25,134 nucleotides of DNA from Pseudogymnoascus verrucosus (Eukaryota): NCBI GenBank assembly GCA_001662655.1, contig KV460226.1; one strand, 5' to 3'. The notes beneath the pieces were generated by a model. The model saw nothing but the letters and a program-made list of their open reading frames with translations, was not told the origin of the DNA and did not search any database. Positions 1 to 25,134 of this stretch are shown here, piece by piece; positions within the stretch are counted from its first letter, which is position 1, and each line of letters starts with the position of its first letter. The position numbers and the translations under genes are program-made.

Positions 1-61
1 CATCCCGAAATGCAGGGCCAGATGCAACATGCCATCCCATCAGCGCTTACCTCCGTCAAAT

Positions 62-130
62 CTTACCACTTACCACTTACCACTTACCACTTACCACTTA
101 CCACTTACCACTTACCACTTACCACTTACC
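62..130. repeat. (CTTACCA)n heptanucleotide tandem repeat, ~9.9 copies
   Basis: Perfect 7-bp period read directly from 62 to 130. Confidence 0.95.
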
Positions 131-911
131 GTCTGACAAGTCTCCTCCTCAACCCTCCCTCCGCATATGTACACTACACTACACTATCAATACCAATACA
201 TCTCCCTCCCCCTACCTCCCCTTACCTCCCCCTACCTCCACCAACCACACTCCTCCCAAGTTACAGATACAGACTCAATACTCGCAATCCCACCGTCGGA
301 GACAACCACACACCACACGTGGCATGCTCCCCTCCCTCCCTCCCCTCCTCCCACCGTCGGACGATCGGCAACCCATTGGCGGATTCCGCGCCGAGGGGTC
401 ATCATTGCTTGAACGGGCCGAGGGTCTAGACGCGCCGTAGTGCGGCTTTACTCGTGTATCCATCGCTCCTTCCCTCTACAACACAATACAATCCCACTCC
501 CCTCACAAACCTCACTCTCCTCCTCCCCTTCTCTCCTCACAATCCATGCACCCTCCCATCCCCCATCTCCCCACGGAGTAAACTCCGACTATCACCCCCC
601 ATGAAAAAAACCCGCACGTCCCCATCCCATATCTCCCCGGCACACTCAAAAAAAAAAGGCCAACAGCCTACACACCCTACACCCACACCCCCAACCAACC
701 CCCCCATCCAACAAAGTGGAGCCATGACGTCCCCATGCATCCTGGACAACCAAATGACGTCGACTAGCCCCCTATGACGGCGTCGCGGGTGGGGCGGTCT
801 GGACCCGTCTCTGACCAATCCCGGGAAGCGGCGAGAGTGTGCAAGGGTCTTGGCGCGGATGGGAGGAGGAGGTGGCGGGCTTGGCGGTGGCTTGGCGGTG
901 GATGGGGGGCT

Positions 912-951
912 GTGGTGCGTGGTGGTGCGTGGTGGTGCGTGGTGGTGCGTG
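912..951. repeat. (GGTGGTGCGT)n 10-bp tandem repeat, ~4 copies
   Basis: Direct reading: tgtggtgcgt ggtggtgcgt ggtggtgcgt ggtggtgcgt. Confidence 0.85.
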
Positions 952-1180
952 CTGGAAGATTTTTGGGGGGAAGGAAGGAAGGTAGGGGAGGCTGGGCTGG
1001 GCTGGGGGGTTTTACCACGGGTTGATGGATGGATGGAGGGACGGGGATGGGGGGGAGTTCAGCCGGTGAGAGTGGGGAGAGGAGGAAGGGTAGGATAGTA
1101 GGGGATGGGAGGAGGGTAACTCGTGGTACGGGTGCACTGCGTGCGGTTAGAGGAGGGGAGGAAGGATTGTGATGTGAACA

Positions 1181-1205
1181 AGCACAGCACAGCACAGCAC
1201 AGCAC
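1181..1205. repeat. (AGCAC)5 microsatellite
   Basis: Direct reading. Confidence 0.85.
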
Positions 1206-1532
1206 GCCTGCATATACGCCCATCCTACTCTCTAATCCTCCCTCAGCCTTCCCTTCCCTTCCTACCACCCCCTACCCCCTCCCTCCTTCCCTCGGAGTAA
1301 CTCTCTCCCACCCTCCCCTCCCCTCCCTTCACACCACCACCACCACCCAACCTCCGACCCCGACCCGACCGACCCCGACCCCATCTCACCGCCCACCCAC
1401 CTCCCCTCCTTCCCTCCCACCCACCTGGCGAGCCGGTCCGAAGCACAGCACCGACCGGTCGCGTGCATGCATGCATGACGTAGCACCCCGCCCCCCGCCC
1501 GACGGCGCGGCACTGTTGGGATGGGGATGGGG

Positions 1533-1620
1533 GTGTGTGTGTGTGTCTATGTGTGTCTGTGTGTGTCTGTGTGTGTCTGTGTGTGTCTGTGTCTGTGTGT
1601 ATGTATGTATGTATATATGT
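1533..1620. repeat. Compound (GT)n/(GTGTGTCTGT)n/(ATGT)n microsatellite
   Basis: Direct reading; explains the spurious CVCV/THTH ORFs here. Confidence 0.9.
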
Positions 1621-1725
1621 ACTCGGCACGCAGCGCAGTGCGGCGCGGCGCATGGCATGGCATGGCTGGCTGTGGTACCGTGTGGGTGCGTGCTGGAGCG
1701 AGGGAGGGGGAGGTGCGCGGACCGG

Positions 1726-1754
1726 GTGCGTGCGTGCGTGCGTGCGTGCGTGCG
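1726..1754. repeat. (GTGC)n tetranucleotide microsatellite
   Basis: gtgcgtgcgtgcgtgcgtgcgtgcgtgcg. Confidence 0.85.
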
Positions 1755-2509
1755 GGCTGGTGGGTTGGTGGGTTGGTGGGTGGTTGCGTGGCTGCGTGGG
1801 AGGGTAGGTGACAGCTCCGATTGTGGGTGGATGGGTGGTGGTGGGTGCAGGCTGGGCGCGGAGGGATGTATGGGGGGAAGCAAGGGAGGTGAGGAGGGAA
1901 AGCTTGAGTGCTTGTGTGATGCTTGGTTGGGGGATGTGCGGTGCGGGTGGGAGGTGGGTGGAAGGTATGATGCTTGGTGGAGGGTGAGTGATGCTTGGTG
2001 GGTGTTCTGAAACGCTTCTATGCTGGGATGGGGGGAGTGTGGTTTGTCAGTGTTGGTTCTATAGGGGAATTGATGTGCGGTCGGTGGTGAGTTGGGGGCG
2101 GTTGGGAGGTGTTGGATGAGCGGCTGAGAGATGTGATGGGATGTGTAAGCCAGTTAGTGGGTGGGAGAGGTGTTGGGCAAGCCACTGTGCGGAGTAACAT
2201 GCAAGTAACCCATAGTGTGAAGTGATAATTCAGCCTCGACCTGGCTGCTTGCATTGCATTGAGGCGTTTTTTACAAGTTGATATTTCGTTTTCATGCCCC
2301 TGGCGCAGGGGGTGCGCATGTAGAATCTCTCCTTTCTTCCTGGTCCCTTCCTTAAAAGGACAGAAGCATTGTGGCCAAGCAATGGCGGGACAAACAGAGC
2401 TGAGACCCCGCAGAGCAAGAGATAATATACTTCTGGTATGGAAACGTACGATTCGCAAAAAACCAACTCCTCATTTTCTACACGGAAAATTGGAAGAGGC
2501 AAAGCTCAC

Positions 2510-2651
2510 GGCAGGTAGGCTATCACCGTCGTTACATTCTTGTCATCACCCTGAGTTCTCACTATCACTACACTCCTGTCACCGCCTAGTATCCTCACTA
2601 TTGTCCCGTTCTCTCACCAGGCCTGGTTTTTATTTCCGTCACGCCCGTGCT
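2510..2651 (-). repeat. Diverged inverted copy of the 8368-8664/20094-20399 repeat family, with ~3 degenerate 36-bp internal units
   Basis: Reverse complement of 2510-2547 matches 8471-8508 at 30/38 (7 of 8 mismatches are transitions); reverse complement of 2634-2651 matches 8438-8455 at 14/18 in colinear order. Confidence 0.55.
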
Positions 2652-2986
2652 TTCAAACAACGGGCAAAGGATTTTCTTCTTATTGTCATTGTTCATTCCA
2701 AGGCACAGAATCTTCTCAAATTGACTTCCGGAATTTACAGTATGGCTGGCGATGATGTTCACGATTCGTGTATGCGCAGGAAGCAGCGCAACGTCTCAAA
2801 TACCCAGCAGTCTTCCCAAACGCCTTGCCCTTCTTCTTCGTGGTTCTGTGGTAAAGTCACGGCCGATTTTCAAAGGGGCTGTTTCTCTACACCAGGTTCT
2901 GCCAGCTCATGATCATCCCAATCAAGGTCACTTCCAGGAAATAAATTCCTCGTCCATCATTGCTTGAGCGTATCACCACCACTTTA

Positions 2987-3653
2987 TTAAAGGCGCATCT
3001 CCAACACGCAACCCTGCCACTCCTTCTCCCCCGCCGTAAAGTCTTCAAGAACCTTAAACCCCTGACTCTCATAATACCTAAATCACCAAAAGCATCAGCC
3101 ATCCAAAAACCACAACACTCCACTCGCACAAGACCACTACTTACCGGACCAACTTCCGATCATTCCCCCTAAAACAATCAACACATATCCGCTTCACCCC
3201 CGTACTCTTAACCTGCTCCTTAGCAAACCCAATAAGCGCCGCCGCAGCCCCCTTCCTCTCCTCCCCCGCATCGCGATTCGAAATGAGGTACGCCAGATAC
3301 ACAAACGGATCACTCTCATCCTGCTCCGGCAGAACAGAGCTGACATATGCCGGCGCCTTCGAATCTAGCACCAATCCCGCCACGGGGACACCGCTACTTG
3401 ATTCCGCAATGGAGGCGCGACACCACTCACTACCCCATGGAGCGTTTTGCTCACTCCTCTCGATCCATAAGCGGGCTTTTTGAGTAACGGCCGGGTTGGC
3501 TTCGCGGACGGATTTGGTGCCCCATTGGTCGGCGCTGCCGACGGTTGAGAGCCAGGGAATTTGGGATTCTTGGAAGTCGACTAGGAGCTCGTGGTCTGAG
3601 GCTGCTATTGTGGCGGGGCGGATTGCGAGGGGGGGTGTGGTTGTTGATGACAT
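2987..3653 (-). CDS. GNAT-family N-acetyltransferase (2 exons: 3653-3145, 3077-2987)
   Basis: MSSTTTPPLAIRPAT...WLSTVGSADQWG...YLAYLISNRDAGEERKGAAAALIGFA...VDCFRGNDRKLVR, GTAAGT...GCTGAT...TTTAG intron 3144-3078, then YYESQGFKVLEDFTAGEKEWQGCVLEMRL*; GNAT acetyl-CoA motif A and the YYxxxGF motif. Confidence 0.88.
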
Positions 3654-4224
3654 TTTTTCTGGTGTTGGATGTTGTGTGGTTACTTGATATGGGTGATACT
3701 CACTATTTATCAAATGTTGGCACTGGCATGGAAATTGATAACGTGGTCTCTTACGTGGTCTTGCGTGGGACCTTCCTTACTTGGAATCTTGAATCGTGCC
3801 GCCTAAGGGAAGCTGCGAGAATGTGCCAAGCATTATCATGATAACATGACTTCGATTGGTCAGCCCGTGTTTTAGCGCGCGATGCTGCACTTCACATGCT
3901 TCACGAAGTATGAGATTTGACGCGAAGCAGGCTTCTGGGTAATCGTGGACACAGGCGCGGACGTAGGCCCTTAATTGCTTGTCGCTGTCCTTATTTCTTT
4001 GGGGTGGATTCTCACTATCTCGTTATCATCATGGTGTGGTGATCTTAGCTGCCACATGCTTCACTCGGGATTCGGTAGGGACAATTTACAACTTAATAAC
4101 TATGATCTCTCAAGTATATTAACTCTAGTATGTGATAATTAAAAACCGGGTGGGCCCAGCTAAAAAAATAAAAAATAATTAATAAAAAGCATAGTTTAAT
4201 TAGCAAAATAAGAAGTTCCAGATT

Positions 4225-8367: not shown

Positions 8368-8664
8368 CTTTGGAGAGAATTGCTACTCTCATAGAGAAGT
8401 TCGACCCGGGGATCTCATAGTAGACCCTAGTGGTTACAGCACGAGAGTGGCGAAAGTGTCAATTTAGAACGGTGACAGGATTATAACGACAGTGATAACC
8501 CATCTGCCTCATTCTCGAAACACGGGTAATACCGCTGTATTGCGTTTAATTCTAGACCCTATGTTCCTCCTAGATTGTTTATTAAATCTATCTAAGAACA
8601 TTTTCTAATTTATTCGCGCTTACGACAGTTCTTCTCGCTGGTTAATGACAGAAGTGACTGCCAG
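8368..8664 (+). repeat. Dispersed repeat copy 1 (less mutated); likely remnant of a mobile-element-associated gene (ALERIAT heptad repeat at its 5' side)
   Basis: Colinear alignment with 20094-20399 over ~300 bp, e.g. atagtagaccctagt, taaatctatctaagaacattttctaatttatt and gttaatgacagaagtg shared exactly. Confidence 0.85.
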
Positions 8665-13896: not shown

Positions 13897-15110
13897 ATGC
13901 TATAGAGATGGCTACTGTGTAATAGTATGAAAGGCCCCTTGTGGTGGTAACATATATTGTCAAATAGAGTTGATTGTGTAGTGGGAGGAGTTGTACGAAG
14001 GCCTGAAAAAGATGAGGCTGCACAACGCGGAGCCAGTTCCGTTGAATTGATTTACGGGTGGCGAAGTAACCCGTGATTAGGAAACGGGACAAAAACAATA
14101 CAGAGCGACGCTCTATGAAACCCAAAATAACCCAATGGTCGAAGTTTCTAGTTATTAAACGTGCCAAAGTATAGGTTTTGGTGAATTCCTATCATGCTCT
14201 CGTCGTAAAGATAATTCTCCTCAGTGCAACATTAAAAATTGCTCCGTGGTGGTGAGTCAGCCGGGTCAGCCCGGGTTCTCTCGTCATGGATCCCCAAACG
14301 GGCATCATCCTCGCAAGTCCGCCATCCTGCTAGTCTGCTCGGCGGATTATTATACCGTGGGATCCTACTGTGGCAGCGGCTTTTTTATGGAAGTTAAATT
14401 AGGCTAATAAAAAAGGAAACATAACCGATTTAAATTTCCAAGTGTCACCAGAGGTGTCGAGAGTGCAATACGCAACGACATAATACTAATCACACTCACA
14501 TTCACATTCACGCTTATCCAATAGCAACCGTTGCGGGACAAGATTAAGATCATGGTTCTGGTGTCGGAACGTCCCGGATCCGCAGCCGTTGCATACTGCA
14601 TTACGTTAGAATTATTTGCTTGTTAGAGGGATGACTTGAGTTGCGGGTTAATCAAATTCCCATTAGATGTGTGGAACTGTGGCCTACGTAGCCTTACATC
14701 CAGTTATGCATTATCTAGTTTACATTTATAGAACCGTAACCATAAAACGAACATATTATAAATATTGTCAAGGTCTCTACATGTTGGGATATTGCTACTA
14801 TAGTTGCATAAAATATAATAATATTGTTGCGCCTTTTAGTAATTACCGTCATCTAAAGCTAAAATACCACTGACTGCAGAGTCCAACAGATGAAAATGGA
14901 GAAAATGGAATGCGTCCTAAATAATTACAGAACTTTCTCATTTTATAACTATAGTACATTCTACAAACCATTCGATGTCGTGCTACTGTGGTGGCAGGCG
15001 ACATCCCTCCTGCACAAGACCGTCTAACCGCTTTATGGCAACCTTTATTATAACCCGTCTAAACTCATTTGCGTAAAATCGGTAGTCTCATGCCCTATGT
15101 TATACACCTT

Positions 15111-17141
15111 TCACTTAGAGAACTTTTGTCTCGTTGGCCTGCAGTGAGTGATGTTAGCCATACTCAACATACAGGTTGACGTAGAACTTACTTCAGCAAC
15201 AACGTCGCCACAACTGTCAGGGCAGCCCCAAGCAGACTAACAATGTAAGTATTCTTAATCGCATCTACCACCACAACCATAATTTTCTGCTGCACCTCAA
15301 TAGTCTGTGCGAGGATCGACTGTTTATCTGTTCCCTGAATAATCGCCCGCACTGTCTCAAGTGGCGTGCTAGGTGGCAGCAAAGCCGCCACGGACTTCTG
15401 CGCGACGTTCAGAAACAGGGAGCCGGAAACACACAGCGCAACGGTTAGCCCAACATACTGTGCCATGCAAATAAAACCTATGGTGGAGGGAATATCATGT
15501 GCCTTGACTTTAAATTGTGCAACAGAGTAGAAGAGCTGACCGACAGCGCCCGCCCCTACGCCAACCAGGGAGCTATATCCGTAAACTTTAGACTGGCTGC
15601 TAGTGATGTTGACGTCCGCATCTAAATATTTTAATGAGATTAGAAACGATCCACCTCGAGAAACATCTCACCGAGGTACTTACAAAATAGAGCTTCACCG
15701 ATAGTGGCTAATATACCACCACAGAAGAACCAGGGCCACCAATGACCTGTCTTTGAGACGACGACTCCACCTAGCATTACCATAAAGACGTAGGTCATGA
15801 CAATAGGAAGCAATCGCACAGCTGCATCAACAGGGCCATCGCCATGGACCAACTGGAAGAATATAGGGATGTAATAGATTGGTACCTAGCATGCATTAGT
15901 TGACTCCTCATTAAAGGTTAACTCGGAATTAGGTTAATATACCAAAACCGATCCGGCGATCGACGCAGTTATGAGCCACAATAGTAGCATGTCTTTATTC
16001 AACATGAACTGAACTGGGAATATTCTGTCATCTTCTGTTGTTAGGATGCAAAACGTCTGCTGGAGTGCAAACAGGACGAAGAGCACAGCCGACGTGACAA
16101 ACAATCCAATCGTCTCCCCGCTGCCCCACAGGTAAATTGTACCCCCAAAACTTATCGCCATGACCCCTGAAACAGAAGCTCCGATTTCAAGAACAGCACC
16201 TAACCAATCCATCTTTGCCCCTCTTGCAGTGAAGGAGATCTGCTGTCCCTTTTTCGGATCCCAGCTAGGAACCATGAAGATGATGATAGGTCCGAAAATG
16301 CCAAAAATGACCTAAACAATCGTTAGTACGCTGGTCTGGTTAATATATATAGGGCCGTAGCGTTACGTTACCAGATTTATGTAGAACGCCCAGCGCCAGG
16401 TTGCACCACTCTCAGCAAAGGCCCCTCCAATGACTGGTCCAAGGACAAAGCCTGCACCCCAGCTGAGACCTGTGTAGCTCATGTATTTCGGACGTTCCTG
16501 TTCAGATGTGTTGACCGAAATAACTAGATAATGGTTTCGGTTAATAACATAAGATCGGATGTGATTGATATACTAACGTGTCAAAGATCCGATATAAACA
16601 CCAGAAGCACCCAGTCCAGCAATAGCCCTCCCCACGATCATTGCATTCATTGTAGGTGCAGCACCACAGAGCGCAGAGCCAATTTCAAATACCACAGATG
16701 AGATAAAGTATAAATGTTTAGCATCCCACAAGGTATAAACCTTAGACCAGACAAGAATAGTCGACATCGATGACAACGTGAACGCCGTTCCTAGCCAAGG
16801 AAGCTTCTCGATCTCACCCAATGTTAATACAACATTAATGCCAATGTCGGCAACAATGGTGTTGTCTAGGGCATAGAGGAATGTCGATCCCGTAATAGCA
16901 AAGACAACGAGGGCCCACTGAAATACACATGAGCTTGATACCAACATATCTAGATTGTGAAGCTTACTGTAAATCCCTGAACACTTCTGACTGGCATTTC
17001 TAAGGCCTCAGGATCGGCTGCAGGTGGGCCTGGAGGAACCTCAATATCGGCCTCCTTTTCGGCGAGAGCCTTTATTGATGCACCGTTATGGCTGAACAAC
17101 AAGTCATCTGGCCCAGCCGCTACTTGATCAAAATTCGGCAT
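15111..17141 (-). CDS. MFS drug:H+ antiporter, DHA2 (14-TMS) family (7 exons: 17141-16968, 16917-16578, 16523-16372, 16311-15943, 15885-15684, 15621-15192, 15138-15111)
   Basis: FLYALDNTIVA, FEIGSALCGAAPTMNAMIVGRAIAGLG, WRWAFYINL, MDWLG, PIYYIPIFFQ; six GT-AG introns all joining in phase. Confidence 0.93.
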
Positions 17142-17449
17142 CCTGTGAAGGGTTTCCGTACAAGGGTGGTGATGAGGTGAATATTACCGATTGTCATTTG
17201 CCTTAAAGAGCCTAGAAAACTAAGCGCAGGTCACCTTATATGAGGGCCTCGCTCGGGGTTTTCGGAGTGATCGAATCGTAAAAACCACCCGTTACGGGTA
17301 TTAAGGATAGGTTTTTACCCGTTAGTGGAGCTCTAGCCAACAGTGGCAGAAAAAGCGGAGATCCTAGGAAGGGTCACTATTTGACGGAGGAGATTGTGGC
17401 TTCTCGTTCTGGCTTTTGGGTTGCCGAGTACCCGTCGACTCCATCTGCA

Positions 17450-17542
17450 TCGATCCCCGAATACCCGCGGACCCGTAAGTTCAGATGTAGCACCTTGCCT
17501 GCTGCAAATCAGCACCTTAAACCATATCATAAGTCGTGAATC
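17450..17542. repeat. Duplicated non-coding module, copy A (upstream of the MFS gene)
   Basis: Aligns to 19728-19803: 17/18 then 45/58 identities with one 17-bp indel. Confidence 0.75.
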
Positions 17543-17799
17543 CTGCTGTAGAGATGATGTAAGTACGTCTTCGGCCCCCCTTAGCACTTTGCTTTCGTTG
17601 AAGCTCATACCTTAAATTCAGCAAATATGGTGTTTTTTAAAGTCGCAGACATGGAAGAGCCAAAGTACGATTTAACGTAAGCGATCGAATCAACCGATAG
17701 TATCCATTAGCTTAGCTGTAGTCCTCTCGCAGACGTCCATTCCCGGACCTTGAAGTCCTCTTTAAGTACAAATTTCTTAACACCCCCGACAAGTCGATC

Positions 17800-18147
17800 A
17801 TGGGAACGAAAGTGACCCACCCTCCGAACGCTTCAACGCCACCCTATACCCATGCCGGAGCATTCGTGGCGGTACACGTCCTCACAGGAAGCGTTCTCAA
17901 CAAGATGAACGACAATCCGATGATAGTTTTTACGAGGCTCCAGGATGCATGCAGACATCGTATTAACGATAATGCCTGCAAGACTGAGGAAGCGAGCCTG
18001 TTTGTCACGATGGTAATGGATACAGGAAAGATGGAGGCAATTCTGGAAAAAGATGGCGTAGCGGGGCTTGTTGTAATTGATGAGGAATACAGGCAGGAAG
18101 TGATGGCACAGATAATGAAGTTGCAGGCTGAACAACAGGGGTCCTGA
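17800..18147 (+). CDS. Hypothetical protein (115 aa), no family recognised
   Basis: ATG ORF with globular-looking composition, AT-rich tttaagta ~35-40 bp upstream and AT-rich 3' region; occupies the gap between the MFS promoter and the hydrolase. Confidence 0.55.
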   Translation: MGTKVTHPPNASTPPYTHAGAFVAVHVLTGSVLNKMNDNPMIVFTRLQDACRHRINDNACKTEEASLFVTMVMDTGKMEAILEKDGVAGLVVIDEEYRQEVMAQIMKLQAEQQGS

Positions 18148-18486
18148 AGGGAGCAGGGAGCATGAACCTGTGCCATAGGGAAATAGTGCAATATCACATA
18201 TGAATTGGAAGATCGTTGTATTAGAAGTTTAGAATGCTGAACTTAAAGTATATATCTACCGCGATTGCATAGGCAGACTTGTTAAATTAAATCGCAATTA
18301 GCAGGATAGTATTTAAGCAGCGAGATGGTGCTAATAAAGTTGAAGGATGTGTCTTCACCTTAGTGTTGTGTCACAACGTTCTCAACTATTTCATTAGCAA
18401 GCTTAGAAGAATTTGCAAAGGGAGGCATTGTTTTCTATTGCACAAACGTCTCAGAGCAGAATTGAACATAACAAGCTTTCCTTTTT

Positions 18487-19260
18487 CTATTCTGTAAATG
18501 ACGCCACGGCTTCTATTATGAAATCAACAGTTTCCTTCGGCCTGCTCAGCATCGGCGAATGGCTGCTCTCAACCTCTCGCAAGGTGATATTTGCATTGGA
18601 ATCCTTCGCAACTTGCACAAGCATCATCTGAGCCTGAACAGGGAAAGCCTTGTCCTCTGTACATGCCAAAAACCAAACCGGCACATCCTTCCAGCCAGCA
18701 TAAGAATGCTCGCCACCCTCCATCAAAGCTTTCAGCGACTGTTTCTTCAGTTTGGTGACCCAGTAATCGCCCTCTGCCTCGGGAAGGTCGTGGTAGAACA
18801 ATTCCCTAGGTGGAACTGTTATGATGGCAAAACCGCTCGGATCAGCCCTCCATGATGGCGGTGGTTTGCCGCCAAGACCGTCAATGAAGCTTACCCCTGT
18901 CTGGCCGAATCCTGAGGCCATCATGACGATGCCGAGGACGTAGCCGGATTGGTCGTTTGAAGATGGCGGAACATTTTGCTTGACGCGGGTGAGGCCTTTG
19001 ATTGCACTCTGGCCGACTGCACCGCCGTAGGAGTGCACAACAACTACAACATCATGCCCTTGTGTGGTCTCCGCTGCGATGGAATCTCGAACGGCGTCGA
19101 CGTCTTCTCCGAAAGTTGCTGAATCATTCCCCGCTGTTGATGGAAGAGCTACGGGTACACATTTGTACTGCTGCGCCTCTAAGAGTGAAGAAACTTTATC
19201 CCATGTTTCAGTACTGTGCCATGCTCCAGGCACCAATATGAGTGTGGGCTTATCAGACAT
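18487..19260 (-). CDS. Alpha/beta-hydrolase (Abhydrolase_6, esterase-like), intronless
   Basis: LILVPGAWH oxyanion region, VHSYGG nucleophile elbow, CTEDKAF acid and SSHSPMLSRP catalytic His. Confidence 0.93.
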   Translation of the reverse strand: MSDKPTLILVPGAWHSTETWDKVSSLLEAQQYKCVPVALPSTAGNDSATFGEDVDAVRDSIAAETTQGHDVVVVVHSYGGAVGQSAIKGLTRVKQNVPPSSNDQSGYVLGIVMMASGFGQTGVSFIDGLGGKPPPSWRADPSGFAIITVPPRELFYHDLPEAEGDYWVTKLKKQSLKALMEGGEHSYAGWKDVPVWFLACTEDKAFPVQAQMMLVQVAKDSNANITLREVESSHSPMLSRPKETVDFIIEAVASFTE

Positions 19261-19727
19261 AGTGAAGTGATGGGAATGCTGAGGTTAAGGACCAAAGCAC
19301 TGAGTAAATTGAGGAGCTGAAGGGAGCAGCTTAAATAGAGAAGAGTCGTAGATATTAGAACAGAACAAGCGGCGGACACAAGCCTTTACTTAACTTGGCA
19401 TTACTGCAAAGATTCCCTACCGCGCCACTCCGTAAATCTCTTCTCGGACCTTTTCACGGTTCTCGTCATATTCTAGGGGCTCAGCCCAGCCAAGGGTATG
19501 TGCATATGTCCGTGGAGGAGCTAGGACACCTCTCTGGGGCGACACTCGTCCACACGCACTGAGTAGGAGCTGGCCAATTGCCCGCTCCCCGAATACCATA
19601 CCCTGCAGAGCCAGGGGTATTCACTTGTAACGGGTACCCGCAAACCCGCTAACCAAATTTGGCAGATCTATATATCCGGCGACCCGTTGCCGGTAGCTCG
19701 CTTATCCCGCAAATCTGCACTGCCTAG

Positions 19728-19803
19728 TCGATTCCCGAATACCCGATGTGGCATGTTACGTGCTGGAGATCGGCCACTTAAACCATGTGATAACTCGTGA
19801 ATC
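19728..19803. repeat. Duplicated non-coding module, copy B (upstream of the hydrolase gene)
   Basis: See 17450-17542. Confidence 0.75.
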
Positions 19804-20093
19804 GTGTCGTTATGCTAAATTGTTTTGCAGTTTAGAAAGTGTACTGGTGTAGCGCCCATATGATGGTCCCGCGAGCCAAGCACTTGTTGTGCGGCGAGAA
19901 TGTGGGACGAGGACATATTCCCGCAATAGCCTATCGCTCGGGAAGGTGAAGTTTTTAATATCCTACAACAGATCGCTAATTATTATCTCGTCTTTCCGAG
20001 TTGCTCGCAGTTTCATATCGGTTTTACCATCAACTCTTTCCTCTTATTTAGTTTTCGCCTAAATTAGATTCTGTTCTACTAAGTCGTAAACCA

Positions 20094-20399
20094 CTTTAGA
20101 GAGAATTACTACTCTTATAGTAGACCCTAGTAATAGTATAAGAGTAGTAGAAGTGTTAATTTAGAGAGTAGTAATAAGATAGGATTAGTAGAAGAATTTA
20201 AGAATAGTAATAGGATTATAATAATAGTAATAACCTATCTACCTTATTCTCTAAACATAGGTAATATTACTATATTATAGTTAATACTAGACCTAATATT
20301 CCTCTTGGATTGTCTAATAAATCTATCTAAGAACATTTTCTAATTTATTTATACTTATAACATTTCTTCTTACTAGTTAATGACAGAAGTGGCTACTAG
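20094..20399 (+). repeat. Dispersed repeat copy 2, heavily RIP-like mutated and AT-rich
   Basis: Relative to 8368-8664 most differences are C>T/G>A: tggagagaattgct>tagagagaattact, cacgggt>cataggt, ttcgcgcttacgac>tttatacttataac. Confidence 0.88.
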
Positions 20400-20513: not shown

Positions 20514-20574
20514 ACATACAACTATAGACTTAAGAGAATTACGCATCCCGTCCGCTCTGCCATACACATGCTTG
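20514..20574 (+). pseudogene. 5S rRNA gene, 5' half (nt ~1-61), interrupted
   Basis: acatacaactatagacttaagagaattacgcatcccgtccgctctgccatacacatgcttg contains the ascomycete 5S hallmarks ACATACRACYATA and CATCCCGTCCGCTCTGCCATACACAAGC. Confidence 0.88.
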
Positions 20575-21233
20575 TAATTCAGTGGCTTAATACTTTTAAT
20601 CGTGCTAATAGGCCTAGCGTGGAATCTGAGCCCCTTGCGGCCTTAAGGGGTGAAGCTAGGGTGAGCAGGGTGAGCAGGGTGAGGCGAAGCGATGATTTTG
20701 TGTCAATTTTCGTGTCAGTCTCGCGTCGATTTCTAATGGTACTAGAGTGTGGCCGTTTTAGCTTACGTACCTGTTCAGGTGCCTTGGTCTTATTTTCTAT
20801 GTTGCACCTGTGAGCCATAAATCTGAGCCACGTAAACTGAGACCCCCAAAAGGTGCAGAGGTGCCACATCAAAGCCACAAGACTGTGAAATTCACGTAAT
20901 TTGGAGATTTGGAGGAGGAACAAAACCAACGACATTCGAAGTTCTCACAGGCATGGCAATTCCATCTACTGGACAATAGTGATCTCATTCTATGATCATA
21001 GGCGCTCAGCAGTCATCGCTCGGTGGTGATTGGGGTGGCTGCGACTTCAGTTTATATAAAAGAATTTCCTGGCTAAAAATCCACTCTAGGCATAGCATTT
21101 CATTGCCCCGCCCCGTTATATAAGTTAAATAGCATTGATGCTTTATACAAAATATTTTGAAAGCAACCGAGTAGGCGTTTCCGCCTCCACGGACTTCCTC
21201 AATCAAAAACAACTAAACCGCAGAAATAATTGT

Positions 21234-22223
21234 TCACTCAAGTGAAACATATTTCAGTGAAACATCCCACAGTTCCCTTGCGCCGGCCACATCGAAGGCA
21301 TGCTGGCCGTAACCTGGAGCCCACATCCCCCCTGCGGGATCATGCGGAGTTGATATCTGGCAGTTTTCCAGGTACTTTCCCCCTTGACCATTAAGATCCT
21401 TCGATACAGCCGCCCACACACTAGTAGCAGCGCCCTGAGCTGGGTTCATGTAGCTGGCCATAAGTTTTGGGTCCTGGGTTATGGCTTTGATCTCTTCCTC
21501 TGACATGTGTTGGCCTAGGTTGGTTGTAACGGCCCCCGGATGAACGCTGAAGGCGTGGAGTCGGTTAGACCCATAGCGCCTCTCGATCTCGTTTGCAGTC
21601 CACAGATTTGCTGTTTTGCTCTGCCCATATGCCTTCATTGCGTCAAACTCGCCGTCGAAATTGATATTCTTGAAATTGACGGAAGAAAACTTATGCCCAG
21701 TTGAGGACAGAACAATTACTCTTGATTCGAACGACGGGGTGGACGCCTTCAGTAGAGCCGGTGTGAGGAGATTGATGAGGAGAAAATGTGACAGGTGATT
21801 AACTCCAAATTGAAGCTCGAACCCGTCCTTCGTGAGTTCTTTGCGGGTCATCATGACTCCTGCGTTTGCAATCAAGAGATGCAATCGGTCATTCTCTGCA
21901 AGTAGTGCCGAAGCACAAGCCCGAACGCTATCCAGAGACTCCTGGTCAAGCTGCAGAAGATGGACATTGGGAGACTCTGAAAGCTCTCCGAGGGCTTTCT
22001 TTGCCTTTTCGAGGCTTCGTGCTGTTAGGTACATTTTTGCCCCAGTCTTGGACAACGCCTTTGCTGTCTCGACTCCGATGCCCGAAGAACAACCTGTTAT
22101 TAAGATCACCTTGTCCGCCCACTTTCCAACCAGACCTTCGTCTTGGATAATCTGTTCGGCTGTTGGGCGTGCATCCCCGGGGCCTTTCGGGTGTTCGTAA
22201 GCTGCAGCGTATCGAGAACTCAT
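21234..22223 (-). CDS. Short-chain dehydrogenase/reductase, retinol dehydrogenase/WWOX-like subgroup, intronless
   Basis: GPGDARPTAEQII N-terminus, TGCSSGIG, ANAGVM, FGVNHLSHFLL, catalytic YGQSK, SVHPG. Confidence 0.95.
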   Translation of the reverse strand: MSSRYAAAYEHPKGPGDARPTAEQIIQDEGLVGKWADKVILITGCSSGIGVETAKALSKTGAKMYLTARSLEKAKKALGELSESPNVHLLQLDQESLDSVRACASALLAENDRLHLLIANAGVMMTRKELTKDGFELQFGVNHLSHFLLINLLTPALLKASTPSFESRVIVLSSTGHKFSSVNFKNINFDGEFDAMKAYGQSKTANLWTANEIERRYGSNRLHAFSVHPGAVTTNLGQHMSEEEIKAITQDPKLMASYMNPAQGAATSVWAAVSKDLNGQGGKYLENCQISTPHDPAGGMWAPGYGQHAFDVAGARELWDVSLKYVSLE

Positions 22224-22664
22224 GATGAGGTGCAAGCGTAGTAACGTATGTAGAATTGCTAACGAAATAAAGAAGTCTTTTGTGCTTCACGAGGAACAGA
22301 CGGGAGTTACGTCTCTATATATACGAAGCGACGCTCGGATTTACGGCGAGGTAGCTCTATCATGCTACTCGCGGTGACCTACGTAAGTTTGCGCTTATAT
22401 GGTTCTCGCGAGTCATGACGACAAAGATTTGAGCGTGAGGATTGCCGCTTGACTCTCATACGTTGTTCAGTAGCTCAGTTTAAAGTTACGCTAATGCAGC
22501 TGGGTGACAGCCGCATTATTAGCGCATTCGTGGTTTCTCGGTAGCGGTCTTTCGCCGTGACTATAGGTTGGTGTTAGCCAACACCCGTCCTGCTCCATCC
22601 GGTTCTCTCCTCCTTCATATCGTATCACAATATTCGCGTTTATGAATGCACCCTGCTGTTAGAT

Positions 22665-23601
22665 ATGGAGGTGAATGTTCAGCGCCATATATCGGCCTCG
22701 GTCCCCGCCCACGGTTCCACTTCGCAGCATAACCCACCGCATATTGCATTCCGGATGCTAGATGATTGGACCGGCATCACTGATCCGAAAAGAAGGAAAA
22801 TAGCGCAGAATCGCTTGAATCAGAGAAAGCGCCGTAAGTCCGCCTTTCCCTCGTCAGCATCAATTGACCTTCTATCTAGGTCGCCGCCAGCGCTGTGCTG
22901 TGGACAATGCAGAGAGAGAGGACCGGCTGGCAACGCCACCTATAAGCCTTGTTGGCAACTGCATCAACCACTTTGCATGTCTAAGGGATCTTTACAGGCT
23001 TGGGATTCATTCGGAACAGGCGAAATGGGTCGCCTGTCAGCTGGAACACATATGTTATAGCCACTACCTAGCCGATTCTCCTCGCACGGAGCTTCTCCTC
23101 GGCCTGACGCAAGTAAACCTAATTCGGGCTCTGATGTTCAATATCGATGTCCTAGGGTATACGTCGACCCAGATGCACAACGATGCCTTGTCTCCTTTCT
23201 GCATTGCTGGTCCCTCACGGGTTGGCGATGAATTGGCTTCCCTCCCTCTTAGCTTACAGCCGACTGCTCTCCAGCGCTCGACTCCACACCACCCATGGCT
23301 TGATCTATTCCCAATAACTCAAATGCGCGATAATTTGATTGCCGCTGAGTCTTTTATAGATGAATACGGGCTCTGCGCAGACCTATGTAGCTCAATAGAA
23401 GGGACAGCAGGCATACTAGTCTGGAAAGACCCGTGGGATCCTAGCGGCTGGGAGGTAACGAGCTCATTTGCGTCTGTATGGGGCCTGGCAATCAAGGATT
23501 GTTGGGATTTGTTTCGGTCTACGAACTATTGGCGCCTAAAACGGGGAGGAAAGCCGTTGTTTTGTATCCCATCGGTTGTATATACGCCGAGGCAGACATA
23601 G
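22665..23601 (+). CDS. bZIP-like basic region + DUF3425 fungal regulator (exons 22665-22833, 22880-23601)
   Basis: DDWTGITDPKRRKIAQNRLNQRKRR; in-phase intron 22834-22879; LPLSLQPTALQRSTPHHPWLDLFP, MRDNLI, LCADL, GILVWKDPWDPSGWEVT, STNYWRLKRG. Confidence 0.92.
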
Positions 23602-23924
23602 GTTACCTCGAATTTCAATATCTGGCCATTCCGCAACGAGCCTCTATGAAATAAGATGCGATTAGGGCGTAGACAGGCGTGAACGCGAACCAAAATCATC
23701 ATGTAAGTCTCATGGATACGCGTATAAATTATTTGCTATAATCACCTCCTGCGAGTAGTCGACTTTCAGACAAATGCTGACCCCGCCTCCGCCCGAACAG
23801 CGGGAAAAGATAATTACAGTCCTTGCTCTGCTGTTGTGCAAGGGCTCGAGAAGCACCAACAGCATGTGTCAAGGTTGTCGATTGCTCTTTGGTCAAGAGG
23901 TGATGCAATACTAGCTGCAGCCAG

Positions 23925-24068
23925 TTTGTACGGACTTAACGGACTTTAAGGGGAATGCCCATCCTGTATGCTCTTGTGAGTAACTCTCACCCTTAACGTT
24001 AGGTGAAAGTTACTCACAAGAGCATACAGGATGAGCATTCCCCTTAAAGTCCGTTAAGTCCGTACAAA
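23925..24068. repeat. 144-bp near-perfect palindrome (67-bp arms, 10-nt spacer); foldback/MITE-like
   Basis: Arms 23925-23991 and 24002-24068 are reverse complements with 2 mismatches (23959, 23986). Confidence 0.95.
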
Positions 24069-24199
24069 GTCAACAATATAGGCAATATTTACAATCAATC
24101 GTTGGGGAGCAGGGTGGACCGTCCTTATGTGGGGTCGTTTTGTCCTGCGGAGCCAATTCTGCAAAGAAACATCATCACCTTTATTCACTATCCTCTACA

Positions 24200-24345
24200 A
24201 TGAGTCTTCCGAGCTTTTAGAGCCAATCTAAGATAAGAGAACAGTTATGGTAAACGGCGGCAATGGCGGTATAGGCTACGCATTGCCTGAGGTTTTATCA
24301 CTGCGAACGCAAAGAGGGTTATTGTCATCAGAGGAAGGACAAGGA
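24200..24345 (+). pseudogene. 5' fragment of a second SDR gene (dead)
   Basis: ATG AGT CTT CCG AGC TTT (MSLPSF), then across frameshifts DKRTVMVNGGNGGIGYA / IA*GFITANAKRVIVI: Rossmann GxxxGxG motif with stops; nothing further recognisable. Confidence 0.65.
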
Positions 24346-24540
24346 CATTAATGAGTAGGAGTTGGCGGTTGGTTCGGAAGCAAGATACTGGCCTAGAAAA
24401 CCAAGTTTACTAGCTCAATAGCAGTCCAGAGTAGCCTTATATTATAACACCTGGCCTGCTGTTGCCTGTCTGGAATATACCAGCGCTTTCATATTGCTAG
24501 AGCTTTACTTGCCACGTGCTAACGGACCCGCTGAATGTAT

Positions 24541-24624
24541 TAGTCTACGGACTTACCATTAACCTGCGGACTTACTACTAGTCTACAGACTTACTAGTAA
24601 TCTGCGGACTTACTATTAGTTTAC
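24541..24624. repeat. 19-bp minisatellite, ~4.4 copies
   Basis: tagtctacggacttaccat / taacctgcggacttactac / tagtctacagacttactag / taatctgcggacttactat / tagtttac. Confidence 0.85.
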
Positions 24625-24841
24625 TCTTGGACTGCGTTTCTTTAGAATATCTATGGCCATCTAAAGTCGCAGTGCATCGCGTTCATTACATCTTAATACA
24701 AGACCCACTTCGTACGTGTTGACGTGGCTGCTATTAGGTAGCTAAGGGGGACAACCGGATTATCGTGAGGCATTAAAAACTTAAGGGCGGCGACGCTCAC
24801 CTACTAGTCTAAATGGCACTGTCCTGAGTATTAAACCGCTT

Positions 24842-24906
24842 CAAGCTTGAGATCAGTGGATTAGTAGTTGGGTGGGTGACCACCAGCAAATACCCACTGT
24901 TGTTGT
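24842..24906 (+). pseudogene. 5S rRNA gene, 3' half (nt ~54-118)
   Basis: caagcttgagatcagtggattagtagttgggtgggtgaccaccagcaaatacccactgttgttgt contains the 5S box C region TTAGTAGTTGGGTGGGTGACCACCAGC and the 3' strand of the terminal helix. Confidence 0.9.
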
Positions 24907-24925
24907 TTTTTGTTATTTTTTTTTT
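24906..24925 (+). terminator. Pol III oligo-T terminator of the 5S gene
   Basis: T6 then T10 runs immediately after the 5S 3' end. Confidence 0.7.
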
Positions 24926-24969
24926 ACTATTTTTGTCGTTGCGTGATAACAACCTCTTCAATTGGTATA

Positions 24970-25120
24970 ACGTATTTCCCGTACGAGTGGCCCACCCGAA
25001 CGAGTGGCCCACCAAAACACCAAAATTGACTATTACTGCCTACTACTACACCACCACCCTACATAATAACCCTTATTCGATCGTAATTGAATCCTTGGGC
25101 CTCTCGCACGTACGGGAGTT
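24970..25120 (+). mobile_element. Internally deleted Fot1/pogo-like DNA transposon remnant
   Basis: TA|ACGTATTTCCCGTACGAGTGGCCCACCCGAACGAGTGGCCCACC: ACGT terminus after TA with a tandem sub-repeat, as in fungal pogo TIRs; degenerate inverted partner tgggcctctcg...tacggga at 25096-25117; ataacccttattcgatcgtaa resembles a RIP-mutated MxPIRSQ transposase start. Confidence 0.55.
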
Positions 25121-25134
25121 ATGGCCCATAATAC

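Follow-up and report, generated by a model that had tools for sequence, protein, structure and literature searches.

The window analysed here, a 25,134-nt stretch of contig KV460226.1 of Pseudogymnoascus verrucosus (assembly GCA_001662655.1), holds a 5S ribosomal RNA (rRNA) gene in two pieces. The 5′ half, equivalent to 5S positions 1–61, lies on the plus strand at 20514–20574; the 3′ half lies on the same strand at 24842–24906 and is followed directly by a run of T (24907–24930). Between them stands an insert of 4,267 bp (20575–24841, plus strand) that is omitted by the intact-5S contigs of all four related genomes compared. It contains two intact genes, one for a short-chain dehydrogenase/reductase (SDR) and one for a DUF3425 (bZIP-like) protein, and is a real site-specific insertion of a mobile-element family.

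The 3′ half was recognised by the Rfam 5S model RF00001, which matched 24842–24908 over model positions 54–120 as a 5′-truncated alignment (26.1 bits, E = 4.5e-4; 21.8 bits in a second scan). The score stays under the gathering score of the model, 38 bits, as would be expected with only half of the gene present. A scan of the whole window against Rfam reported no 5S, and the 5′ half alone (20514–20574) gave no Rfam match in two scans. The identity of the 5′ half was deduced from the contigs of the relatives, in which 20566 is joined to 24842, from pairing in helices I and II, and from the position at which matches to those contigs begin, 20514, where they have loose ends.

Logan contigs of four related genomes (runs X2, X4, X5 and X6) served as the comparison set. 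In all four, 20566 was joined straight to 24842 with omission of 4,275 bases, two letters at the joint fitting either side. The shorter side of this joint measured 54 letters in X5 (two contigs) and just 22 in X2, X4 and X6. The depth of the joined 5S contig was 510 (X2), 1202 (X4), 907 (X5) and 859 (X6), that of the insert body 22.5, 54.2, 40.7 and 33.1, respectively, so that the joined contigs stand at 22–26 times single-copy depth; contig depth is a rough ratio only and does not equal copy number. The high-depth joined sequence represents the normal 5S gene, which these fungi carry in many copies.

Joining the two halves gives a 5S sequence of 118 nt. All seven Rfam pairs of helix II form between the halves, and helix I forms over 9 bp, perfect save for one A that is absent from the window copy near 24903; from 24903 on, the intact 5S copies of the relatives diverge from the window, again with loose ends. 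Unconstrained folding of the joined 118-nt RNA yielded a structure that was not 5S-like and no more stable than shuffled sequences (−25.7 vs. −24.1 ± 3.7 kcal/mol, z = −0.43). The stretches 20514–20574 and 24842–24906 are the two halves of one Pseudogymnoascus-like 5S gene.

Both edges of the insert are marked by an 8-bp direct repeat. The left copy, CATGCTTG (20567–20574, plus strand), consists of the last 8 nt of the 5′ half, and the right copy, CAAGCTTG (24842–24849), of the first 8 nt of the 3′ half. They agree at 7/8 positions, the T at 20569 being the letter that departs from intact 5S; the right copy is a perfect palindrome and represents 5S positions 54–61. Within the repeats lie two inverted arms that agree at 12/14 positions, the left one at 20581–20594 (plus strand), 6 nt inside its direct repeat, and the right one at 24827–24840 (minus strand), 1 nt inside. 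The score of this pair was reached by 7/2000 shuffles of the terminal 50 nt and by 1/2000 shuffles of the terminal 25 nt. Over the terminal 220 nt it was not significant (77/300 shuffles), and comparison of the terminal 220 nt of both ends revealed no inverted repeat beyond the 14-mer.

The left end also resembles the target gene itself. The stretch 20579–20595 matches 24853–24869 (plus strand), a part of the 5S gene 3′ of the target, at 14/17 positions (5/5000 shuffles), and this 5S stretch, which is like both arms of the element and is a possible recombinase half-site by a motif defined post hoc, stands past the core at nearly the same offset as the left arm. For the right end of the element, no similarity to the 5S sequence upstream of the target was detected (2485/5000 shuffles reached the score). 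A motif written from the three sites, the two arms and the 5S stretch, has no other occurrence in the window, and at the right junction two inverted motifs are placed 14 nt apart around the core. Judged from sequence, the layout of the ends thus appears to be the attachment-site pattern of site-specific recombinases and not that of cut-and-paste transposons; the 14/17 homology between left arm and 5S fits the prediction for a site-specific recombinase, not that for a DDE transposase.

An earlier note on this DNA had proposed a 5S gene split by a 4.27-kb insert, with helices I and II pairing across the junction, a length of about 118 nt upon removal of the insert, a 7/8 direct repeat CAWGCTTG and 14-bp inverted repeats at 6 and 1 nt from it. 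These features are all observed. Its further statement that the halves overlap by 8 bp only has to be amended, since the similarity between left junction and 5S extends further, as described above.

The relatives hold 5S variants with an altered middle. X2 carries 22 other letters between 20560 and 24862, and in variants of X5 and X6 the first part of the palindrome is replaced by 4 or 6 other letters. Some 5S copies in the relatives are thus without the exact target, as reported for the host of the Starship Voyager.

The SDR gene of the insert (21234–22223, minus strand) is intact and intronless and encodes 329 aa (adh_short, E = 6e-26) with full-length homologs. The DUF3425 gene (22665–23601, plus strand; DUF3425, E = 4e-14), transcribed divergently from it, is likewise intact and encodes 296 aa in two exons, 22665–22833 and 22880–23601, around a 46-nt intron (22834–22879, GTAAGT...TAG); both exons are 100% identical to the annotated 296-aa P. 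verrucosus protein P0400. Named proteins with 99–100% identity to those of the insert belong to Pseudogymnoascus (Leotiomycetes). No recombinase or transposase domain was detected in these two genes or in 27 further frames of the insert, none of which rose above a family cut-off, and the 65 frames of at least 90 aa in the rest of the window held no DUF3435, recombinase or transposase domain.

The rightmost 1.2 kb of the insert is non-coding. It includes a 144-bp hairpin (23925–24068), found by repeat scan, whose 67-nt arms are 97% complementary, carry the motif ACGGACTTA and show no extension past 67 nt, as well as four to five tandem 19-bp units (24538–24632, plus strand), each with (C/A)GGACTTAC, about 210–300 bp from the right end. 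Hairpin and tandem units share the ACGGACTTA-type motif, which in the window occurs only inside the insert; the same holds for CGGACTTA within the 25 kb. These motifs may be candidate binding sites. A microRNA assignment of the hairpin was rejected, as a plant model scored 57 bits, under that model's threshold, and the score is attributed to the hairpin alone. Contigs of all four relatives break at the hairpin. At 24077–24150, a contig of single-copy depth omits these 74 bases and another covers them in all four relatives, which suggests a second partial copy or allele.

The ends of the insert are repeated in the related genomes. The left terminal region (20575–20800, plus strand), which includes a 9-bp minisatellite GGTGAGCAG at 20660–20686, is met in 5–16 other contigs per run at 20595–20657: 8, 5, 5 and 6 other contigs (X2, X4, X5 and X6, respectively) at 20595 and 13, 13, 15 and 16 at 20614. 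The right terminal region (24643–24841, plus strand) recurs at about 87–90% identity, with 10, 12, 12 and 9 other contigs at 24835, and its copies diverge from the window upstream of about 24648. The summed depth of the terminal parts amounts to 6–24 times single copy, a depth ratio and not a copy number. Some 190 bp of the right end is common to other copies, which continue into a 5S 3′ half (X2 record 5) and, deeper in the element, bear no likeness to the window; a contig of this type, 2,583 nt long, occurs in X2 and X5 alike.

Unrelated sequence follows the 5S 5′ half at 20574 in three contigs each of X4 and X5, and two X2 contigs resume the 5S at 24845. The varied sequences abutting the 5S at 20574 identify this position as a recurrent integration point. 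In one X4 contig, the 5S 3′ end is followed by the left terminal region, entered 25 nt inside the element start (24901→20599). At another joint, 20683→24845, the outermost 109 nt of the left end are linked to the 5S 3′ half by 15 other letters. Taken together, these joints suggest that related ends stand at a second 5S site and that there is a solo-end insertion of about 125 bp. By a 31-letter rule, the left flank was bridged into the 5S half in all four runs and the right junction in one of the four, the remaining three bridging it with 27–28 letters. A metagenome scan with a 21-letter pattern of the left end returned two loci, both of them chance matches in bacterial DNA inside a bacterial membrane-protein gene adjoining a SAM riboswitch.

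The two genes of the insert have a distribution unlike that of their neighbourhood. SDR identity is 98.8–99.7% within Pseudogymnoascus, 90.9% to Talaromyces proteolyticus, 86.6% to Lipomyces kononenkoae and 84.5–85.8% to Penicillium lagena, P. brasilianum, P. ochrochloron and P. pancosmium, and no more than 61% in all other fungi, Leotiomycetes included. In the SDR tree these proteins form a tight mixed clade (100/100 support, 18 of the 40 rows) together with unnamed metagenome proteins; a Pseudogymnoascus SDR paralog groups with Botrytis and Cadophora, as the species tree predicts. The DUF3425 protein finds the same set of taxa at 67–75% identity, the next being at about 50%. Its gene adjoins the SDR gene in seven cases, Talaromyces and Penicillium included: consecutive locus tags were found in Pseudogymnoascus sp. 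WSF 3629 and P. lagena, and five further neighbour cases were deduced from the equal size of the contigs of both genes. Many contigs with the gene pair are just 3.9–4.9 kb long, which hints, no more, at a small repeat-bounded unit. The flanking hydrolase, taken as a control, declines gradually through the Leotiomycetes (66–73%), with no Eurotiales near the top. On these protein identities, the distribution of the cargo gene pair looks like that left by horizontal transfer. A protein search of viral contigs with the SDR gave 10 pattern matches, none of which was confirmed.

Flank and insert also differ in divergence. In two Pseudogymnoascus strains, the hydrolase shows 91.05% identity (23/257 differences), as against 99.1% and 98.8% for the SDR (Fisher p = 2e-6 and 1e-5, respectively). 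Against the four relatives, the insert body differs at 12/3163 (X2), 15/3318 (X4), 29/3210 (X5) and 25/3141 (X6) positions and the left flank at 25/5348 (X2), 29/5348 (X4) and 43/4943 (X5); in X6, the one flank piece aligned differs at 51/341 places. X6 yielded no coverage of 15000–20069 at a likeness of at least 85%, an absence that was not counted as evidence. These contrasts suggest that the insert is younger than the lineages carrying it.

The remainder of the window contains genes for a Zn2Cys6 factor, fragments of MFS/TRI12-type transporters, the alpha/beta hydrolase and the 20-kDa subunit of complex I. Just upstream of the 5S half, an AT-rich stretch (20094–20399, GC 0.25) is a degenerate copy of 8368–8664 (GC 0.42), 12 kb away (223/285 identical); 41 of the 62 differences are G>A or C>T toward the copy on the 5S side, a bias like that of repeat-induced point mutation (RIP). 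The insert itself shows no RIP-like bias. On the right, 100 bp beyond the 5S terminator, 25011–25134 is a very high-copy repeat in all four relatives (bin depth 3087–5409; one contig at depth 294), preceded by a 17-bp tandem pair at 24978–25011. Positions 1–4000 are GC-rich (0.54–0.64) and strongly strand-skewed; they contain microsatellites of GT type, and the long open frames that overlap there on the two strands matched no Pfam family.

For the insert as a whole, we favour, at an even chance, a recombinase-less, cargo-carrying member of a multi-copy site-specific family that depends on a Starship-type tyrosine recombinase. The family would integrate at the palindrome CAAGCTTG (5S positions 54–61) of Pseudogymnoascus 5S genes. 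A captain-type tyrosine recombinase, as in Starships, whose gene lies elsewhere would bind the two inverted arms (AGYGGNTTARTA), which circularisation would bring to a distance of 15 nt from each other, on either side of the core copy of the element, and would also bind the single look-alike site that follows the core of the 5S gene after 5 nt. Strand exchange within the core would then leave the element's copy, marked by its T, on the left and the copy from the 5S gene on the right, and would thereby produce the observed 7/8 direct repeat. We infer the enzyme class, its supply in trans, the circular intermediate and the movement of the 4.27-kb unit itself.

The earlier note had described the insert as a miniature non-autonomous Starship derivative with intact cargo and no captain. 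The 5S insertion, the ends, the two intact genes and the absence of a recombinase domain from the frames of the insert stand; the Starship origin does not have the same footing, as we infer it from the target site, the architecture of the ends and the host group. Of the hallmarks of Starships, the insert has short target-matching direct repeats with inverted repeats and a specific 5S target at positions 54–61; it lacks the DUF3435 captain and the size of tens to hundreds of kilobases. As the captain is the defining feature, the insert was not filed as a Starship.

Starships enter 5S rDNA at at least five distinct internal sites with direct repeats of 6–16 bp (PMC11162782), Voyager being inserted 20 bp from the start of the 5S gene (PMC9156397); in Aspergillus fumigatus, 5S genes are broken up by Osiris elements (10.1101/2024.06.28.601215). 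Many DUF3435 captain genes are catalogued in Pseudogymnoascus genomes (PMC11162782 supplement). With the 5S-targeting Starships, namely Voyager, Osiris navis, elements of the Enterprise and Arwing families, aspfum15_tyr1309 and aspche2_tyr886, the insert shares a host in the Pezizomycotina, insertion inside the 5S coding region, strand-specific direct repeats (6–20 bp in the Starships) that match the 5S, though not always perfectly, inverted repeats at unequal distances inside the direct repeats, and cargo genes with signatures of horizontal transfer. The direct repeats of the last two, both from Aspergillus, we take to be the 5S stretch homologous to the target, from the Rfam consensus UAAGC at model positions 54–58. 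The repeat of aspfum15_tyr1309 is given as aagccaca and that of aspche2_tyr886 as an imperfect 20-nt repeat with inverted repeats 28 and 48 nt inside, and the passages of the supplement concerned carry no 5S label for either (PMC11162782). Unlike these Starships, the insert has no DUF3435 captain and no DUF3723, FRE, NLR or PLP genes, measures 4.3 kb with two genes instead of 27–700 kb with many cargo genes, and has ends in roughly at least 10 copies per genome.

Starships move via a circle (10.64898/2026.09.21.753150), and a frameshifted mini-Hephaestus is excised again once a captain is provided in trans (PMC10104507). This construct resembles the insert in being small, in having kept both flanks and in being excised with a captain in trans (PMC10104507; 10.64898/2026.09.21.753150). 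It differs in being man-made, with 3.8 + 1.9 kb of flank, and in its target, TTAC(N7)A and not 5S. Bacterial cis-mobilisable elements (CIMEs) and integrative mobilisable elements (IMEs) are flanked by att sites, have lost their own integrase, carry cargo, need the integrase of a related element and integrate into RNA genes. The insert likewise has kept both att-like ends, has no recombinase, carries cargo, stands in an RNA gene and would need the enzyme of a related element, an analogy of logic only, as CIMEs and IMEs are prokaryotic. In the older Aspergillus literature, truncated 5S pseudogenes of filamentous fungi run from the 5′ half to mid-gene and then into a repeated foreign block. Here, the matching 3′ half is found 4.27 kb downstream, and the foreign block is accordingly the end of an inserted element. 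A literature search found no paper on a natural kilobase-sized captain-less Starship with both ends.

Several observations weigh against the favoured explanation. The three-site motif was defined from the very sites in which it was found, and the 15-nt spacing of the arms in a circularised element exceeds the 6–8 nt of classical tyrosine-recombinase cores. About 10–20 copies of the ends per genome, a rough depth ratio, are far above the 0–4 reported for Starships. The insert holds none of the Starship marker cargo (DUF3723, FRE, NLR, PLP), the arms and the direct repeat have no match in the examined portion of the starfish supplement, and no captain-bearing element with the same ends was seen, fungal genomes not having been searched. 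The mismatch in the direct repeat and the missing A of helix I fit an old, decaying insertion. The insertion also looks fixed in the clade, as the cargo stands at single-copy depth in all four relatives and the left flank enters the 5S half in each of them. No locus-specific empty site was found, the contigs of the relatives breaking at the 5S repeat and offering only generic intact copies, and the left junction is bridged by none of the contigs listed. The contrast between flank and insert sets unlike proteins side by side, and in X6 the flank piece compared may stem from a paralogous repeat affected by RIP.

In a rival explanation, a full-size Starship entered the 5S gene and was later stripped of its captain and of most cargo through internal deletion, leaving a dead stump of 4.27 kb that never moved as a unit. 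We regard this as unlikely. The copy is single and apparently fixed in all four relatives, and the mismatched direct repeat and the lost A indicate age. Captain-less degraded or Derelict Starships, in which the captain is lost and cargo persists, have been described (PMC9156397; PMC12134995), and the only bounded Pseudogymnoascus element in the portion of the starfish supplement covered has a mere 87-bp captain fragment (PMC11162782). Degraded Starships are defined by at least three DUF3723, FRE, PLP or NLR matches without DUF3435 (PMC9156397), and the insert has no match to any of these families. Degraded and Derelict Starships are large regions with at least 3–4 marker genes and usually without clean boundaries, whereas the insert has intact boundaries and no markers. 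A random deletion would not predict that both ends and both genes remain intact. The gene pair has, moreover, been kept together in several Eurotiales, the small contigs that carry it hint, no more, at a compact repeat-bounded unit, and the insert is far more alike between Pseudogymnoascus lineages than the flank.

Another transposon class, for instance a DDE element that prefers 5S, makes an 8-bp target-site duplication and has captured two host genes, is quite improbable. At least 10 copies, short conserved ends and subterminal 19-bp repeats are typical of DNA transposons and miniature inverted-repeat transposable elements (MITEs), hAT elements typically make duplications of 8 bp, and the Dada superfamily comprises animal transposons that target small RNA genes. 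In the insert, however, the 8-bp duplication does not lie directly beside the inverted repeats, which are 6 and 1 nt inside and not terminal, the terminal bases are mismatched, and no transposase remnant was detected. The left end copies the downstream sequence of the target, for which a cut-and-paste transposase has no need. Other insertions share the break at 20574, but a right break at another place, 24845, also occurs (loose ends), which fits a crossover core and not a fixed staggered cut. Simple MITEs and hAT elements were rejected for the lack of terminal inverted repeats, and a Helitron for the lack of 5′-TC/CTRR-3′ ends.

A non-mobile origin, with two independent 5S fragments flanking ordinary genes or a rearrangement or repair event that placed 4.3 kb in the 5S gene, is very improbable and close to refuted already: many dispersed 5S genes and truncated pseudogenes are common in filamentous fungi (PMC9156397, citing Rooney and Ward 2005) and the locus adjoins a RIP-affected repeat, but the halves abut exactly, overlap by 8 bp and together make 118 nt, the inverted repeats are improbable by chance, and the ends are common to other 5S-adjacent copies. 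A small share of the probability was assigned to none of these explanations.

Beyond the proposed dependence of this insert on a Starship-type recombinase, a wider reading may be put forward tentatively, as a possibility with the balance against it: Pseudogymnoascus may possess a natural family of captain-less Starship-type shuttles moved in trans by resident captains. Such shuttles would measure a few kilobases, a length small enough to evade RIP, and would keep only att-like ends of about 200 bp directed at the 5S palindrome; one of them might have carried the SDR/bZIP module from one group to another among Leotiomycetes, Eurotiales and perhaps Lipomyces. If the insert is instead a stranded remnant, it is still a clear case of Starship decay that leaves working genes in a broken 5S gene. 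If the shuttles exist, captain-based surveys overlook a whole layer of eukaryotic cargo mobility, since Starships are found by their captain gene and elements reduced to their ends are invisible to current surveys. They would be a fungal counterpart of the bacterial mobilisable elements and would provide a compact natural substrate for captain recognition, a 14-nt arm pair with an 8-nt palindromic core. They would also explain many truncated fungal 5S pseudogenes, and would mean that single metabolic modules, and not giant islands alone, travel between fungal classes.

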